DNA of 64,000 bases from an uncultured Rivularia sp. (GTDB lineage: Bacteria; Cyanobacteriota; Cyanobacteriia; Cyanobacteriales; Nostocaceae), in assembly GCA_963665115.1 (NCBI GenBank), contig OY762007.1, positions 64,001 through 128,000 of the forward strand, given 5' to 3'. A program made the position numbers and the translations under genes. Shown here in pieces: positions 46,814 through 57,403 of this stretch (within the stretch, counting starts at the first letter, position 1; every line of letters starts with the position of its first letter). A model generated the notes under the pieces. That model did not search any database. It was not told the DNA's origin and saw only the letters and a list, made by a program, of their open reading frames with translations.

Positions 46814-48458
46814 CTACACAGCACAATTCAATTCCCCAGCTTTTTTAGTAAACCGCATATTTTCGCGATAATCTACACGACAATCAATTACCGCTGGAAC
46901 ATCTTGCGCTAAAGCTTCTTTGAGCATGGGCACTAAATCGGTAGCAGCTTCAACTCGATAACCTTTTAATCCCATACTTTCAGCAAATTTAACAAAGTCG
47001 GGATTACCAAATTTGATAAAAGATGCATTACCTTCACCAAATTGATTTTCCTGTTTCCACTCAATTAAACCATAACCGCCGTCGTTGAAAATCAAGGTTA
47101 CAAATGGCGTACCCACTCGCAAAGCTGTTTCCAATTCCTGAGAGTTCATCATAAAGCCGCCATCACCGCTGACAGCGACAACCTTACGGTTGGGATGAAC
47201 TAATTTCGCCGCTAAAGCACCGGGAATTGCAATTCCCATCGCTGCAAAACCATTGGAAATAATACAGGTATTTGGACTATGACAGTGATAATGACGGGCA
47301 ATCCACATTTTATGTGCGCCGACATCAGATATTACAATATCTTCAGGGCCCCATCACCTGCCGTAAGTCGTAAATTACTTTCTGCGGTTTCATGGGAAAT
47401 GCGTCATCTTTGGCGTGATATTCGTAATCTACACGAATATTTTCCCTGAGTTTAATCGCATAAGGAGACTCTTTATCATGTCTATTTGCTACCTTCAGAA
47501 TCTCGTTTAAAGAGTCAGTTATATCGCCAACAACTTCCACTTCCGGAATATAGCTACTATCTATTTCTGCTAACTTTGTAGCAATATGAATAATCGGAAT
47601 GTTCCCATCTGGATTCCATTTTTTCGGCGAAAATTCAATTAAATCGTAGCCAATTGCAATTACTAAGTCAGTATTATCAAAACCACAAATACTAAAATCT
47701 CTTTGCTGCAATCCTACAGTCCATAAAGCTAAAGGATGAGTATAAGGAATTATTCCTTTACCCATAAAAGTATTCGCAACCGGAATATTTAAGTCGGTAG
47801 CAAATTGAGTTACCGCATCGCTAGCATTTGCACGAATTGCTCCATTCCCAACTAAAATTATCGGATTTGTAGCTTGAGAAATTGCCGCAGCAGCAGCCCT
47901 AATAGTAGAGAAAGAAGCAAAACTTTTTTCTACATTATCTTTACCTAAAGGCTTACCTTCTACCGGCATTGCAGCGATGTTTTCGGGTAAGTCAATATGT
48001 ACCGCACCTGGTTTTTCTCTTTGCGCTCGTTTAAAAGCTTTGCGGACAATTTCCGGGGTAATACTCGGACGAACAATTTGCTTATTCCACTTAGTGACTG
48101 GTGCAAACATTGCTACCAAATCCAAATATTGATGGGATTCAATATGCATTCTATCGGTTCCCACCTGTCCGGTAATTGCTACCAAAGGCGCACCATCAAG
48201 GTTAGCATCTGCAACCCCAGTCATCAAATTAGTTGCACCGGGGCCAAGTGTAGAAAGACATACCCCAGCCTTCCCCGTCAAACGTCCGTAGACATCCGCC
48301 ATAAAAGCCGCACCTTGTTCGTGACGGGTAGTAATAAATTTAATTGGAGATGTTTTCAAAGCCTCCAAAACGTGTAAATTCTCTTCACCGGGGAGTCCAA
48401 ATACATATTCCACCCCTTCATTTTCCAAGCATTTGACTAGCAATTCTGCTGTATCCAT
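46814..48458 (-). CDS. ogdA: ThDP-dependent 2-oxoglutarate decarboxylase (acetolactate synthase-like; frameshift near 47348)
   Basis: FGLPGEEN, RHEQGAAFMAD, GDGGFMMNSQELET; adjacent to SSADH as in the cyanobacterial TCA bypass. Confidence 0.85.
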
Positions 48459-50034: not shown

Positions 50035-50285
50035 GGGGGATGGGGAGATAATAATTACTAACTTTTTTACAAATTCCTGGAATTTCGGGAAGCTATGCTA
50101 AACCCGCTGAAACTGAACCAGAGGTGACGGTTACGACTGTTGCAACTATTGTGGGAATTGTCGGTGGAACTATGGCGTAATACCTTTATGCATCAAGCTG
50201 AGCCGCACCTCGCGGTAAACGCTTATCGCCGAACAAGTCCATAAGTGGTATCTCGAATATAAACAGCACAAGCCTGGTAAAAAAT
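50035..50285 (+). pseudogene. decayed duplicate of the 107-aa gene at 51677-52000 including upstream DNA
   Basis: LQIPGISGSYAKPAETEPEVTVTTVATIVGIVGGTMA-[47-nt insert]-IAEQVHKWYLEYKQHKPGKK; start codon region deleted. Confidence 0.9.
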
Positions 50286-50412
50286 GCGCTTTACTACCTA
50301 AGTAATTTTGACGAATTATAGTGCTATCCTATTTAAGTAAAAAGATGTATCTTATTAATCATTCTTTCTACGTAGTAAAAACTGTAGTATTCTTCTTCTA
50401 GAAATTATACCG

Positions 50413-51195
50413 ATGAAAATCTCACCTAATTTTCGCGCAATGGTTTTAAATGCTACTGCTACGCTCATGGCTTTGGGGTTAAGCATCAGCACTGGAAGCA
50501 CAGTATTGGCACAATCCAAACCCACGATTTCAGTTCCAGAATTCAAAAATGAGTCAGCCTGGTGGTGGTGGCAGAGAAGCACTGCCAGAGATTTGGCAGC
50601 TGCGCTGAGTAATGAATTGAATGCGACAGGAAAGTTTACTGTGGTCGAGCGGCAAAAACTCGGAGCAGTTTTATCTGAACAGGAATTAGCCGAACTCGGG
50701 CTAGTCCGTCAAGGAACCGAAGCGAAGAAAGGACAACTAACAGGGTCTAGGTACATCGTGTTGGGTCAAGTAACATCCTACGAAGAAGGAGTTGCCAAAG
50801 AATCCACCAGAGGTCGAATCGGCGGTATCAAAGTTGGTGGCATTAGGATTGGAGGTGGCGGGGGTAAAAAGTCCCAGGACGCTTATATCGCCATCGATTT
50901 GCGAGTTGTTGATTCCACTACAGGCGAAGTAGTTTATGCGAGAACCGTAGAGGGCCGCGCTACCTCAAAATCTGGAGGTGGTAATGTAGGAGTGAGGTTA
51001 GGTGGTGTGAATTTGGGTGGCGATCGCTCCGAGACAAAGCGTGTCCCTGTAGGAAAAGCGCTGCGTGCAGCTTTAGTTGAAGCAACCGATTACTTGAGTT
51101 GTGTCATGGTTGAAAAAGGATCTTGTATCGCGAAGTTTGACGAGAAAGATCAAAAGCGTCGTGATAGCAACACAGATATACTGAAGCTAGACTAA
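50413..51195 (+). CDS. CsgG/HfaB family exported protein
   Basis: signal peptide, FTVVERQKLGAVLSEQEL, IDLRVVDSTTGEV. Confidence 0.85.
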   Translation: MKISPNFRAMVLNATATLMALGLSISTGSTVLAQSKPTISVPEFKNESAWWWWQRSTARDLAAALSNELNATGKFTVVERQKLGAVLSEQELAELGLVRQGTEAKKGQLTGSRYIVLGQVTSYEEGVAKESTRGRIGGIKVGGIRIGGGGGKKSQDAYIAIDLRVVDSTTGEVVYARTVEGRATSKSGGGNVGVRLGGVNLGGDRSETKRVPVGKALRAALVEATDYLSCVMVEKGSCIAKFDEKDQKRRDSNTDILKLD

Positions 51196-51294
51196 AAATT
51201 TACATTCTCAGGTCGTGCATATACTAAGATTATTGGCTGACTAGAGAATAGAACCAAATAACCTATGTAGAGACGTTGCACTGCAACGTCTCAT

Positions 51295-51439
51295 TAGACA
51301 TCTCCGGAAATAAAAAAAACCTCTCTCCAAACCTCTCTCCTACGAGGAGAGAGGCTTTAAACCCCACTTTCCTGCTCCGGAAAGGGGGGGTAGGGGGGTT
51401 AGGTTTTCAACTCTACTGAATGTTTTCCGGAGATGTCTA
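51295..51439. mobile_element. MITE with perfect 16-bp TIR TAGACATCTCCGGAAA and internal REP hairpins
   Basis: TIRs read directly; sits against a GTAGAGACG..CGTCTC REP. Confidence 0.85.
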
Positions 51440-51453
51440 TTAATTTTGCGAGA

Positions 51454-51578
51454 TAAGCTGACGTGCAGTTAAATTGTATAAGGTAAAGAATTTGAACGAT
51501 TGTAGTGCGGGCATCTTGCCCGCTTCTCATATACATCTTGCCCGCTTCTCTTATACAAATTGAATACGCAACAGCTTA
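51454..51578. mobile_element. MITE-like element (copy 2, with internal 22-nt duplication)
   Basis: matches 43402-43504. Confidence 0.8.
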
Positions 51579-51676
51579 ACAAAATTTCTTCGGGAGATGG
51601 GGAGATGGAAAGAATTTTAACCTTAATTACTTCTAACCTTTTTTACAATGACATAGAAATGATTCGCAGGTAAATT

Positions 51677-52000
51677 ATGGCAGATATCCAAGTAGCAATC
51701 GAGGGTGAGAATGCAGTTTCCGCAACTGAGGAACTTTTGCAAATTTCTGGTATTTCGGGAAGCTATACTACACCCACAGAAACCGAAAGAGAGGGAACAG
51801 CCGCAACCATTGCAACCATCGTGGGAATTGTTGGGGGGACAATGGCGATCGCCGAACAAATTCGTAAGTGGTATATCGAATACAAACAGCACAAGTCTGG
51901 TAAGAAAATAGCCAAGGTGTTGATTGTGGGCAAGAATGGCGAAAGACTGATTTTGGAAGGGGCTACAGCCGAACAGATTCAGCGGATTTTGAGCAGTTAA
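51677..52000 (+). CDS. small protein with Gly-rich hydrophobic helix, EACC1-like putative protease-activated effector
   Basis: 107 aa; ATIATIVGIVGGTMAIAEQIRKW hydrophobic segment, C-terminal VLIVGKNGERLILE hairpin; directly upstream of a CHAT gene; family call from recalled resemblance. Confidence 0.6.
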   Translation: MADIQVAIEGENAVSATEELLQISGISGSYTTPTETEREGTAATIATIVGIVGGTMAIAEQIRKWYIEYKQHKSGKKIAKVLIVGKNGERLILEGATAEQIQRILSS

Positions 52001-52203
52001 TCTATTTTCGTATTGCTAATTGATTTTTTGGATAACCGAAACCCTTGTAGAGACGTAGCAGTGCTACGTCTCAAAATCTAGATTCACACCTGACAGCAAA
52101 ACCTTTCAACACCGCAGGTAATTATTATATCTAAACAAAAACATCCGGAATCAAACTTGTTACCATTGGGGATAATATTTAACATCCCCATTTTCCCGGA
52201 TTT

Positions 52204-55200
52204 ATGCAAATCCTTCATTTTAATCTCAAGCTTTTACAGAATCATTGCGTAGAGTTACGTTATTTCGAGAATAATCCCAATCAGTATCAAAGCCGCTCTC
52301 TTCCTTTAACAGAGATTGCCGATTTAATTAGATTGGCAGAACAAGATTACTATATTCCTTTACCAGAAGACTATAAGAAAACGGGACAAAAATTATTTGA
52401 TTGGTTGGATGGAAATGACAGGTTTCTGCAACAATTGCTCGACAAGCAGCGGGGTGAAGGGATTGTTTTAGCCATCAGCACGTCGGGAAATATCGCGCAT
52501 CTACCTTGGGAATTATTACACAACGGTAAATGCTTCCTGGTAGAAACAAAACCGGGGATAATTCCGGTGCGGTGGGTGTCGTCAGATGCGGTAAAACAAC
52601 TATCAATCAAACCACAGCCAGAAAATCGAGCTTTGCAAATGCTGTTTATGGCGACTTCTCCTTTAAACGTAAAACCCGTATTGGATTTTGAGAAGGAAGA
52701 AGCGAGTATATTAACAGCTACAGCGCGACAACCTTTGACGTTGACGGTGGAAGAAAGCGGCTGTTTGCAAGAATTGGGATATTTAGTAGAAGATTACGGT
52801 AAAGAAGATGGTAAAAGTTATTTTGATGTTTTACATTTAACTGGTCATGCGACAATCAAGGATGAGACACCAGCTTTTATTACAGAATCGGCAACGGGTG
52901 AAGCTATAGAATCCACCGCCGACGATATCGCTTCAGAATTACAGTTTCAGCTACCCAAATTAATTTTCCTTTCCGGTTGTCGCACTGGGCAAGCAGCTAA
53001 CTGTGGTGCGGTGCCTTCGATGGCGGAATCTTTGCTTGATAAAGGTGCTACTTCGGTTTTGGGTTGGGGGCAAAAGGTTTTAGATGCTGATGCAACTGCT
53101 GCTGCTGAGAGTTTATATCAAGCTTTATCTGCGGGAAAGTTATTAAGCGAAAGTTTGGCTTTGACTTATCAAGCTTTGATTGAAAATAAAGCCAGAGATT
53201 GGCATTTACTGCGGCTGTATGTTGCGGATACTTTACCGGGGAATTTGGTGACATCTTTACGCACTACGGGAAGGATACCAGCATCACCTCGTTCGTTTAA
53301 TGCGGAATTTTTAGATGCTGCTGGTAAAGTGAAGGTGCCAACTAGAGAAAGTTTTGTTGGTAGAAGAAGACAGTTACAATGTTGTTTGAGAACTTTAACT
53401 TTACCCCTCCTAACCTCCCCTTATCAAGGAGAGGAAATTAGTGGAAGAATCGGCGTGTTAATTCATGGAATGGGAGGATTGGGTAAAAGTAGTTTAGCTG
53501 CAAGATTATGTGACAGGTTAACTAATTTTCAGCGCGTTGTTTGGGTGGGAGCAATTGACGAAGCAAGTTTAGTAAATCGTTTGACGGAGAAATTAGATAA
53601 TCAAACCTTGCGAGAAACGCTGCAAAATCCAGATGAAGAATTAAAATTTCGGTTGAGAAGAGTTTTTAATTCATTGCAAGAAACCGGGAATAATCCTTTT
53701 TTACTAGTTTTAGACGACTTTGAAGCCAACTTAGAACCCCGCAACGACAGTTATATATTGCTTCCAGTTGCAGCAAAGGTATTATCAGCTTTAGTTTGGG
53801 CAATTAATGAAACTGACAAACTCCAACGAATTATAATTACCTGTCGCTATGACTTTGAATCAAGTTCTTTACAGCACTTCTACAAACAACCTTTAGAAGG
53901 AATGCATGGTGCAGACTTGCGAAAAAAGCTGAATCGTCTCGCTGCTTTTGAGGAAACATCCCAAGTAGACGAGACGTTACAAGCAAAAGCGCAACGGTTA
54001 GCAGATGGTAATCCCCGGTTGTTGGAATGGTTGGATAAATTATTGCAATCTAATGTTGATGTTGCGGCAATTTTAGATAAATTAGCAGATGATTCTGTAG
54101 AATTGCGAGAGCAGGTTTTAGCTGAAAAATTGTTGCAGCAGATGGATGATACCATGCGAGAAATGTTGCAGCTTGGTTTGGTGTTTGAGTTACCAGTACC
54201 CAGGGAAGCTTTAGAAATCGTTTGTGAAAATATTGCGGAAGTGCAACAGTATATAGATAAAGCGATCGCGTTGGGGTTGTTGGAAGTTAGCCCGGATAAG
54301 TCGTTGCGGGTGCCGAGGATTTTACCTTTGAAGAAATTAAATTCTGGCTTACCCACAGATAATGAAATTACAGTCATTGCGACGACAGGAAGCAATCGCG
54401 AAATATTTGAGATAGCTGCACAGGTTTTATATCGGTTGTGGCGGGAAGATAAAGAAACTTATATAGAAGAGCAAGCATTAGAAATTCATCGCTTGGCTTT
54501 GTTGGGGAGAGAAACCGAAATTTCTGGTAATTTAGCATCTAATCTAGCAAATAACTGGTGGCATAAAAATCGTTATAGAGAAACAGTAGAACTTTGTAAA
54601 TCAACCTTAGAAATTATAGAAGATTATCGTCTTCTCAAGCCAATGGCTTATTGTCAGCAACAATTGGGTGAAGTTGAACAAGCATCAAAGAATTATCAGC
54701 AAGCCTTAAAACTTTGTCCGTTGAAAGAGGAAGCAGAGACATCAGCCATTTATCTTTCTTTTGGAATGCTCAAAGCACAACAAGGTGATGTCGAACAAGC
54801 AATCAACCTTTACCAACAATCTTTGGAATTAGAAGAAAGAATTGGTAACGTACAAGGAAAAGCTGCAATTATTCACAATCTTGCCATAATTTACGCACAA
54901 CGTGGTGAAGTCGATGAAGCAATCAACCTTTACCAACAATCTTTGGATTTAGATGAAAGAATTGGTAACGTACAAGGAAAAGCTGCTTCTCTACACCAAC
55001 TTGCAGGAATTTACGCACAACGTGGTGATGTCGATGAAGCAATCAACCTTTACCAACAATCTTTGGAATTATATGAAAGAATTGGTAACGTACAAGGAAA
55101 AGCTGCTTCTCTACACTGTCTTGCCATAATTTACGCACAACGTGGTGATGTCGATGAAGCAATCAACCTTTACCAACAATCTTTGGAATTATATGAAAGA

Positions 55201-56301
55201 ATTGGTAACGTACAAGGAAAAGCTGCTTCTCTACACCAACTTGCAGGAATTTACGCACAACGTGGTGATGTCGATGAAGCAATCAACCTTTACCAACAAT
55301 CTTTGGAATTAACAGAAAGAATTGGTAACGTACAAGGAAAAGCTGCTTCTCTACACCAACTTGCAGGAATTTACGCACAACGTGGTGATGTCGATGAAGC
55401 AATCAACCTTTACCAACAATCTTTGGAATTATATGAAAGAATTGGTAACGTACAAGGAAAAGCTGCTTCTCTACACCAACTTGCAGGAATTTACGCACAA
55501 CGTGGTGATGTCGATGAAGCAATCAACCTTTACCAACAATCTTTGGAATTAAAAGAAAGAATTGGTAACGTACAAGGAAAAGCTGCTTCTCTACACCAAC
55601 TTGCAGGAATTTACGCACAACGTGGTGAAGTCGATGAAGCAATCAACCTTTACCAACAATCTTTGGAATTATATGAAAGAATTGGTGACGTACAAGGAAA
55701 AGCTGCTTCTCTACACCAACTTGCAGGAATTTACGCACAACGTGGTGATGTCGATGAAGCAATCAACCTTTACCAACAATCTTTGGAATTAACAGAAAGA
55801 ATTGGTGACGTACAAGGAAAAGCTGCTTCTCTACACCAACTTGCAGGAATTTACGCACAACGTGGTGAAGTCGATGAAGCAATCAACCTTTACCAACAAT
55901 CTTTGGATTTAGATGAAAGAATTGGTAACGTACAAGGAAAAGCTGCTTCTCTACACCAACTTGCAGGAATTTACGCACAACGTGGTGATGTCGATGAAGC
56001 AATCAACCTTTACCAACAATCTTTGGAATTAAAAGAAAGAATTGGTGACGTACAAGGAAAAGCTGCTTCTCTAGGTATGCTTGGACAACTTTTAGCTGAT
56101 GAAAAGCAAGACTTTACAACCGCACTGGACTATTTACAGCAATCTTTTGAGATATTACAGCGTATCAAGTCACCGGATGCTCAAACTGTAAAGGAAATAA
56201 TTGATAGAATTAAAGCTGCACAAATTAGATCGACAAGTCAAGATTCTAGTAATGGGATTATTTCTCTTTGGCGAAAATTAGTTAATAAGATAAGAAGTTA
56301 G
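52204..56301 (+). CDS. CHAT (caspase-like) protease - STAND/NB-ARC-like ATPase - TPR array protein
   Basis: LPWELL, HLTGH (His), FLSGC (Cys), FVGR, GMGGLGKS, LVLDDFE, GNPRLL, ~13 TPR-like repeats. Confidence 0.93.
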   Translation: MQILHFNLKLLQNHCVELRYFENNPNQYQSRSLPLTEIADLIRLAEQDYYIPLPEDYKKTGQKLFDWLDGNDRFLQQLLDKQRGEGIVLAISTSGNIAHLPWELLHNGKCFLVETKPGIIPVRWVSSDAVKQLSIKPQPENRALQMLFMATSPLNVKPVLDFEKEEASILTATARQPLTLTVEESGCLQELGYLVEDYGKEDGKSYFDVLHLTGHATIKDETPAFITESATGEAIESTADDIASELQFQLPKLIFLSGCRTGQAANCGAVPSMAESLLDKGATSVLGWGQKVLDADATAAAESLYQALSAGKLLSESLALTYQALIENKARDWHLLRLYVADTLPGNLVTSLRTTGRIPASPRSFNAEFLDAAGKVKVPTRESFVGRRRQLQCCLRTLTLPLLTSPYQGEEISGRIGVLIHGMGGLGKSSLAARLCDRLTNFQRVVWVGAIDEASLVNRLTEKLDNQTLRETLQNPDEELKFRLRRVFNSLQETGNNPFLLVLDDFEANLEPRNDSYILLPVAAKVLSALVWAINETDKLQRIIITCRYDFESSSLQHFYKQPLEGMHGADLRKKLNRLAAFEETSQVDETLQAKAQRLADGNPRLLEWLDKLLQSNVDVAAILDKLADDSVELREQVLAEKLLQQMDDTMREMLQLGLVFELPVPREALEIVCENIAEVQQYIDKAIALGLLEVSPDKSLRVPRILPLKKLNSGLPTDNEITVIATTGSNREIFEIAAQVLYRLWREDKETYIEEQALEIHRLALLGRETEISGNLASNLANNWWHKNRYRETVELCKSTLEIIEDYRLLKPMAYCQQQLGEVEQASKNYQQALKLCPLKEEAETSAIYLSFGMLKAQQGDVEQAINLYQQSLELEERIGNVQGKAAIIHNLAIIYAQRGEVDEAINLYQQSLDLDERIGNVQGKAASLHQLAGIYAQRGDVDEAINLYQQSLELYERIGNVQGKAASLHCLAIIYAQRGDVDEAINLYQQSLELYERIGNVQGKAASLHQLAGIYAQRGDVDEAINLYQQSLELTERIGNVQGKAASLHQLAGIYAQRGDVDEAINLYQQSLELYERIGNVQGKAASLHQLAGIYAQRGDVDEAINLYQQSLELKERIGNVQGKAASLHQLAGIYAQRGEVDEAINLYQQSLELYERIGDVQGKAASLHQLAGIYAQRGDVDEAINLYQQSLELTERIGDVQGKAASLHQLAGIYAQRGEVDEAINLYQQSLDLDERIGNVQGKAASLHQLAGIYAQRGDVDEAINLYQQSLELKERIGDVQGKAASLGMLGQLLADEKQDFTTALDYLQQSFEILQRIKSPDAQTVKEIIDRIKAAQIRSTSQDSSNGIISLWRKLVNKIRS
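54781..56073 (+). repeat. 120-bp near-identical tandem repeat, 10 full units + 1 partial (40-aa TPR-like units)
   Basis: read directly; units 2 and 10 identical, units 4 and 6 identical. Confidence 0.98.
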
Positions 56302-56746: not shown

Positions 56747-57403
56747 CAAGGTTTCTAAATGCTAATCACTGAAAACTATTGCAGTCTAAGCATTAAAGCA
56801 AGTTAGAGTCTTTTCAAAAATAGTCATTTAAAGTCAATTCAGCGAGCGAAAAACTGAACCGCAAACATTGTCAAAAAGAACAATGAAAATAAGTACATTA
56901 AACTATCTGTATTTAAAAGCATGGTATCTGTTCCCTAAAAACTATTCACTGTAGACTGAGTATATTCACATAATTGTTCCTGAGCAAAATATAAGTATAA
57001 TTACTATATTTAATCATTAAAAAAATATCAATAAGTTTTATAAATAGCAGTATGGTTAATATACCTAAGTGTATAAATTATTCCTGGTATGTAGTGGCGC
57101 TTTAGCGTATCAGTCCAATAATTCCGCGCAGCAAGCCTTTACCTCCTTAGTGCGCTTTCTAACTTCATCAGCGAAATATCCGAAACTATACTTATTAACA
57201 TCGAAAGTAATATTTGTCATCCCTAGTTCTCCGGTTTTATGGAAATTTATATTTCTATCTAAAGTTAAATCAGAACTAGAATAATTGCGTAGAATTACGT
57301 TACCCAACTATCAATTATCAATTATCAATTATCAATTATCAATTACCAATTATCAATTATCAATTATCAATTATCAATTACCAATCCCCAATGCCTAAAA
57401 ATT

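Follow-up and report, generated by a model that had tools for sequence, protein, structure and literature searches.

What does a gene of 107 codons do directly in front of a large gene encoding a CHAT-STAND-TPR receptor in a cyanobacterial genome? The two genes lie in a window of 64,000 nucleotides (contig OY762007.1 of an uncultured Rivularia sp., positions 64,001-128,000, forward strand), and all coordinates given below are positions in this window. Both open reading frames were found where a sequence-only reading had placed them, the small gene at 51677..52000 and the receptor gene (1365 amino acids) at 52204..56301, on the same (+) strand and separated by a gap of 203 nucleotides. Our answer is that the pair probably constitutes a protease-gated cell-suicide defence, in which the CHAT protease likely cuts the small protein and frees a predicted membrane-damaging fragment.

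A small gene paired with a CHAT receptor gene

Among GTDB genomes we found 238 relatives of the small gene, and the best 80 loci, all at least 62% identical, were fetched. The linkage to CHAT-STAND-TPR genes that the sequence-only reading had proposed held up, as the homologues were found beside protease genes, with CHAT sequence at most 1.5 kb downstream of the small gene in 77 of these 80 loci. The other three were a locus with the receptor directly upstream, one whose contig ends after 263 nucleotides and one in which CHAT is absent. In 78 of the 80 loci, then, the small gene has a CHAT-protease gene, or what is left of one, as its neighbour. Twenty further loci from a phylum search were chosen to include second copies and weak matches; a CHAT gene adjoins in 15 of them, and in several of these the stop codon abuts or overlaps the next start codon; in all five unlinked ones the small gene is truncated, frameshifted or polar-substituted. 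A search with a distant sub-alignment yielded nine metagenome loci on contigs with 68-74% guanine plus cytosine (GC) that do not look cyanobacterial. A CHAT gene (identity up to 48%) lies directly downstream in six of them, one of the remaining contigs ends after about 200 nucleotides and two lack CHAT. Of 27 genomes of the window's genus, 17 gave a match. Five of the six genus genomes without CHAT beside the small gene have that gene broken, and the sixth has it intact. The family was present in 46 of 401 sampled cyanobacterial genomes, and no match to a distant homologue of the small protein was found among plasmids and viral contigs. The small gene and the CHAT receptor gene are a conserved pair that co-occurs and co-decays, and chance adjacency was rejected. 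Mirror-tree correlations (small protein with CHAT 0.70, small protein with STAND 0.66, CHAT with STAND 0.92) do not separate co-evolution from shared descent and were not used.

Some loci carry an additional gene. In several loci of the Pseudanabaena type (L015:7329-7778, L031:7284-7778) a DUF29 gene separates the small gene from the receptor, and in Pseudanabaena sp. UWO311 a 724-amino-acid Piwi-domain (Argonaute-like) gene replaces the middle of the receptor, with a CHAT fragment on one side and a TPR remnant on the other (L060:7826-10739). The genome of the window also holds 17 other CHAT-like frames, none of them adjoined by a member of the small-protein family.

The receptor begins with a CHAT (caspase-like cysteine) protease region (52204..53259), in which residues 59-332 match PF12770 with E 2e-20 and 73.9 bits against a cut-off of 24. 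The intact His/Cys dyad claimed for it was borne out: HLTGH (residues 211-215) and FLSGC (255-259) are present, and in 81 aligned receptors, selected by CHAT similarity and length, H211, G214, H215 and C259 are all invariant (81/81; dyad codons H215 at 52846-52848 and C259 at 52978-52980, + strand). A reading of the CHAT domain as a dead enzyme was rejected on this invariance. The STAND NTPase module follows at 53284..54500 (NB-ARC 31.5 bits against a cut-off of 23.5, E 1.4e-7; nSTAND1 30 bits against 27.1, E 5.4e-7), with Walker A (GMGGLGKS, residues 422-429, 53467-53490) and Walker B (LLVLDD, residues 500-505, 53701-53718) as described earlier; K428 is kept in 75 and D505 in 72 of the 81 receptors, most of the misses being gaps. 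The long TPR array was likewise found, as eleven units of 40 amino acids (residues 844-1283, 54733..56052) that form the putative sensor. Judged from these catalytic and ATPase motifs, the receptor looks active. The CHAT region had no useful match among sequences of solved structures, and the Avs models of PADLOC gave no match at E<=0.1.

Another finding was that the locus changes rapidly. Units 2-11 of the window's TPR array average 95% identity at the DNA level, eight codon columns varying in amino acid and two silently only, and the units are variable at positions 9, 12, 34 and 39. Nine receptors whose arrays are about as homogeneous vary most at positions 34, 12 and 9. The 48 closed receptors range from 819 to 1516 amino acids and contain 0-14 repeats of the type found in the window, and in three tested relatives (L088, L091, L098) GUN4 replaces the TPR array, giving CHAT-STAND-GUN4. 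The receptor is split, truncated or internally deleted in about 19 of 80 loci, some of which may be assembly errors. In a near-identical strain recovered from a public run, the flanks differ in 3 of 1339 bases, the surroundings of the small gene in 12 of 553 and the receptor in 118 of 1985, and the receptor carries a frameshifting deletion of 4 bases. From repeat turnover, the GUN4 swap, breakage and divergence between strains we infer the behaviour of an immune locus.

The small protein and its relation to EACC1

The small protein gave no match below E 0.01 in Pfam, NCBIfam or PADLOC. Its homologues number 372 at 90% and 229 at 50% clustering, the close ones carrying the names Rivularia, Calothrix and Richelia, which makes the host a filamentous cyanobacterium. 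The small gene is under purifying selection, with a ratio of non-synonymous to synonymous substitution rates (dN/dS) of 0.07-0.17 against all seven close relatives tested. In one relative of 368 amino acids (P0216) the domain is C-terminal and the region preceding it is without a Pfam match. The protein had been described as carrying a Gly-rich hydrophobic helix. The hydrophobic Gly/Ala-rich segment is real (residues 41-59; Kyte-Doolittle value 1.75, and above 1.6 in all 120 close homologues) and leads into an amphipathic helix with an invariant W65 (together 51797..51892, + strand; the putative membrane-inserting part), but the AlphaFold model (predicted local distance difference test, pLDDT, 84) shows strand 43-51 and helix 55-72 rather than one long helix. 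The modelled elements are strand 4-10, helix 13-21, strand 26-31, a low-confidence loop, strand 43-51, helix 55-72, strands 78-84 and 90-92 and helix 98-106, that is, beta-alpha-beta-loop-beta-alpha-beta-beta-alpha. The hydrophobic stretch is thus predicted to be buried in a ferredoxin-like soluble alpha/beta domain, its strand held in a sheet, and the earlier picture of a hydrophobic helix that is simply freed needs revision. A fold search ranked ferredoxin-like folds first, both for this model and for that of an EACC1-like protein of a cyanobacterial caspase locus (L084), at a Z of about 7 that is not specific. Foldseek found nothing in the PDB at E<=0.001 for the small protein, the VIA fold search gave a best Z of 7.2 and none at 8, and a viral structure library returned a single uncharacterised match (E 7e-4).

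The sequence-only reading had also named the small protein an EACC1-like effector. EACC1 two-gene systems, which are mainly actinobacterial and include STAND and repeat fusions, were defined by Kaur et al. 2020 (PMC7159879), whose term 'caspase' may include CHAT. The 96 aligned members of the small-protein family matched EACC1 (PF19953) more often than any other Pfam family (20 of 96 at E<=1, best 8.4e-5; the next family was matched by 11). A relative of 241 amino acids outside this alignment reached 23.7 bits against the EACC1 cut-off of 23.6, and in the ESM Atlas six of 30 neighbour clusters fall into one set, in the best cluster of which 10% of the members carry EACC1. As a reference set we used 12 small genes lying 5' of actinobacterial caspases, 11 of them above the EACC1 cut-off. 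Profile-profile comparison with these 12 proteins gave a probability of 63% and E 6.9e-5 over 108 columns, W65 aligning with the conserved Trp of the actinobacterial EACC1 profile. With trimmed profiles and a cleaner EACC1 set of 10 members the score was 24.2 (E 9.5e-4), against maxima of 19.5 in column shuffles and 18.0 in 8-block shuffles. The caspase-adjacent cyanobacterial EACC1-like protein of L084 was modelled with the same order of elements and a disordered loop at the same place, and like EACC1 the small protein has one conserved hydrophobic segment, which contains small residues and has alpha and beta elements on its flanks. We read the small protein as a divergent EACC1-like branch that is likely homologous; profiles, matches in 20 of 96 members and the order of the fold point to a remote likeness to EACC1, whereas by the Pfam test the protein is not a member of EACC1. 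The PF19953 profile was above its cut-off in 0 of 41, 0 of 301 and 0 of 201 genomes searched, searches that are uninformative on absence.

Two observations concern the cyanobacterial caspase-adjacent EACC1-like proteins. In public databases they are named 'sugar ABC transporter permease' (e.g. L084:1447-1830), probably a misannotation, and the genome of the window contains a caspase-linked member of their family (G000:C1:484740-485123, E 7e-35).

Proposed mechanism and its alternatives

An acidic, low-confidence loop (residues 32-42, 51770..51802, + strand; pLDDT 60 over residues 31-40) precedes the hydrophobic segment and is the putative cleavage loop. It contains ETER-EG (residues 35-40), which had been likened to the site cut by separase. 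The substrate site of separase is an ExxR motif. This likeness did not survive, because no more than 65 of the 121 close homologues and 31 of the 112 distant ones have a strict ExxR, with Lys frequently in place of Arg, and a strict separase-type substrate was rejected; what is conserved is one basic residue at the end of the acidic loop. Column 38 (R38 codon at 51788-51790, + strand) is Arg or Lys in all 121 close homologues and in 97 of the 112 distant ones; Lys takes the basic position in 27 of the 121 and in 41 of the 112. In 109 of the 112 distant homologues this stretch of the loop contains a basic residue, the remaining positions being mostly acidic. The neighbouring E39 is a second candidate for the cut site because it is nearly invariant in close homologues (120/121), though not in distant ones (61/112). 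On this conservation, cleavage by CHAT would most likely take place after R38. The computed products of such a cut are an acidic N-terminal part of 4.0 kDa (net charge -6) and a basic C-terminal part of 7.5 kDa (net charge +4), close to the pieces of 5.7 and 7.1 kDa of KrEACC1 (Evans et al., 10.1101/2025.11.14.688446). Placed by eye only, Asp49 of KrEACC1 is 24 residues before its Trp and R38 is 27 before W65, in the same loop.

By what is established for Avs and other receptors like the NOD-like receptors (NLRs), a ligand, most likely a phage protein, would bind the TPR (or GUN4) sensor, upon which the STAND module would oligomerise and activate the CHAT domain. CHAT would then cut the exposed loop of the small protein, a putative pro-toxin with a predicted latent fold, most likely after R38, and the cut is predicted to remove the acidic N-terminal half, which supplies two strands and a helix to the sheet around the hydrophobic strand. 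The basic C-terminal fragment would, in analogy to KrEACC1, oligomerise in the membrane, killing one cell and sparing the filament. Cleave-and-release of the small protein by CHAT is thus a proposal by analogy: such a mechanism has been demonstrated for EACC1 and caspase-Avs12, and its logic is therefore already known. KrEACC1 is cut at Asp49 by caspase-Avs12, only its C-terminal fragment of 7.1 kDa is toxic, and liposomes leak (Evans et al., bioRxiv 10.1101/2025.11.14.688446). New here are the CHAT-clade protease, the unannotated effector branch, the conserved Arg/Lys of the loop and the rapidly varying sensor, in a system that most likely works like EACC1-caspase-Avs12.

With KrEACC1-KrAvs12 and other EACC1-caspase systems the pair shares a 5' gene of about 110 amino acids, a hydrophobic segment rich in small residues and a loop before it, as well as a second gene that joins an N-terminal protease of the caspase superfamily, a STAND NTPase and a variable C-terminal sensor; the profiles of the small proteins align colinearly. 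It differs in that the protease belongs to the CHAT clade (PF12770), whereas the caspase-adjacent EACC1 loci that we fetched are annotated 'caspase family protein', in that the small protein stays below the PF19953 cut-off, unlike EACC1, and in that the loop offers Arg/Lys where KrEACC1 is cut at Asp49. Moreover, the pair is mainly cyanobacterial and its sensor consists of near-identical TPR units of 40 amino acids or of GUN4. The bacterial gasdermins (10.1101/2021.06.07.447441) are alike in that an adjacent membrane toxin becomes active when a CHAT protease, in many cases fused to TPR or NACHT, cuts it once in an exposed loop. The gasdermin effector is, however, unrelated to the small protein in size and fold, the part that it sheds is a C-terminal peptide and not, as proposed here, the N-terminal half, and the CHAT protease of Runella cuts after Leu in contrast to the putative basic site here. 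The Avs and other bacterial NLR-like STAND receptors (PMC13581612) have the same effector-STAND-TPR architecture with intact Walker motifs, but the receptor described here has no assignment to a numbered Avs family. Pepco (Trypco1/2) and CATASP are likewise small genes beside proteases, and Pepco is common in cyanobacteria; Pepco differs, however, as a preassembled barrel that is cut at its C-terminal tail. Identity with Pepco or CATASP was rejected, as neither appears among the 25 families that the 96 members matched. Work on filamentous bacteria whose NLRs have conserved repeats (10.1101/2020.01.06.895854) and further studies (PMC8195603, PMC10907252, 10.1101/2022.07.19.500537) provide the context. 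Our searches of the literature and of supplements found no description of the CHAT-linked family, although the figures and largest supplements of PMC12642450 and PMC13581612 may list it.

For regulated cell death in filamentous cyanobacteria the pair would provide a concrete, compact and testable genetic basis, namely a receptor, a substrate of 107 amino acids and a predicted cut site. It would widen the range of EACC1-type effectors to include partners of CHAT proteases and a family missed by Pfam, NCBIfam and PADLOC, and would add a CHAT protease with a likely specificity for basic residues and a sensor whose repeats change fast between strains. The surprise is limited because the underlying logic was already published in a 2025 preprint.

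Several observations weigh against a cleaved EACC1-like toxin in a defence locus. In the Pfam scan the window's small protein had no EACC1 match, and the Pfam cut-off of 23.6 bits was reached by none of the 96 aligned members (best 23.0). One of 100 shuffles in 15-column blocks reached 24.4 against the real 24.2 obtained with the 10-member set, and the set of cyanobacterial caspase-adjacent EACC1-like proteins gave a weak profile score of 19.7, with an 8-block shuffle reaching 21.1. A CHAT protease need not cut after a basic residue, that of Runella cutting after Leu247. As to the pairing, one locus (L005) has an intact small gene without a receptor, and one genome (G016) has kept the receptor with a frameshifted small gene. 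The site in the genus lies between housekeeping genes without an obvious defence island, no system in PADLOC matches the small protein, and no experiments on its family were found in the literature.

An explanation that we consider unlikely is that the small protein is a membrane-associated adaptor, activator or inhibitor of CHAT, which would kill or signal by cutting other proteins. This is the original proposal for EACC1, which was read as a membrane sensor with a single transmembrane segment that activates the caspase (Kaur et al. 2020, PMC7159879), and any obligate partner would fit the linkage and the co-decay. A defence caspase without an effector has been reported (Evans et al., 10.1101/2025.11.14.688446), and the 17 CHAT-like frames without a small-family neighbour could be read in the same way. 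Against a membrane-associated adaptor speak the model, in which the hydrophobic stretch lies inside a soluble alpha/beta domain, the basic residue kept in an otherwise variable acidic loop, and the fact that the EACC1 protein tested is a cleaved toxin (10.1101/2025.11.14.688446).

Other possibilities keep the release of a membrane toxin and change what is sensed. We consider it rather improbable, taking its parts together, that a CHAT-clade NLR runs membrane toxins of a so far unannotated, protease-activated branch while the reshuffling of near-identical TPRs provides a variable recognition surface in the fungal style, and that filamentous cyanobacteria would kill single cells on sensing non-self proteins, not necessarily those of a phage, as a bacterial counterpart of cell death in heterokaryon incompatibility. 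There is similarly a slim chance that the cleavage is the same and the trigger is not a phage, in that the hypervariable repeats would respond to a non-self protein of cyanobacteria or to some other intruding protein, as do the NLRs of fungal incompatibility. Such a trigger would suit TPR units that are near-identical with their variation concentrated at positions 9, 12 and 34, as well as the sharp allele differences between close strains; high internal repeat conservation is seen in fungal and bacterial NLRs (10.1101/2020.01.06.895854), and kin recognition has been discussed for multicellular bacteria (PMC10907252). Phage pressure, however, predicts repeat turnover equally, and the characterised bacterial STAND-TPR receptors in the sources cited here sense phage proteins.

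HetF has a role in cyanobacterial development. That the pair is a HetF-like developmental or stress-signalling protease module and not one of death or defence is most improbable, for although CHAT takes its name from cyanobacterial HetF and the genus site has housekeeping neighbours, the pair is patchily present (46 of 401 genomes), is frequently broken or deleted within the genus and occurs on the contigs with 68-74% GC as well. We retain the protease-gated cell-suicide defence as the preferred reading.

The surroundings of the pair

A broken second copy of the small gene (50064..50293, + strand; 72% over residues 20-58, with an internal stop) is a decayed remnant and was identical in the public-run contigs X1-X3. 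This copy stands at the genus-wide site beside an aldehyde dehydrogenase gene and is followed by a csgG-like gene (50413-51195) and then by the intact pair. The intact pair may be a duplicate or a re-acquisition, because another genome of the genus (G004) has only the broken copy and csgG, without an intact pair. The stretch 51506-54700 was matched with zero differences by one contig of a public run, which may be the source sample.

Upstream of these genes, an acetolactate-synthase-like gene (named from its sequence; 46814-48458) is split into frames of 371 and 164 amino acids, where relatives have a single frame of 547 amino acids. One extra base at 47346 is present in run X1 and absent in X2-X4, so that it is either a mutation of the strain or an error in the source data. 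A scan for promoters and terminators at the locus remained at chance level. Palindromes and short tandem repeats were found in the intergenic stretches 51190-51670, 51993-52153 and 57290-57390, and many further copies of them occur in the genome.

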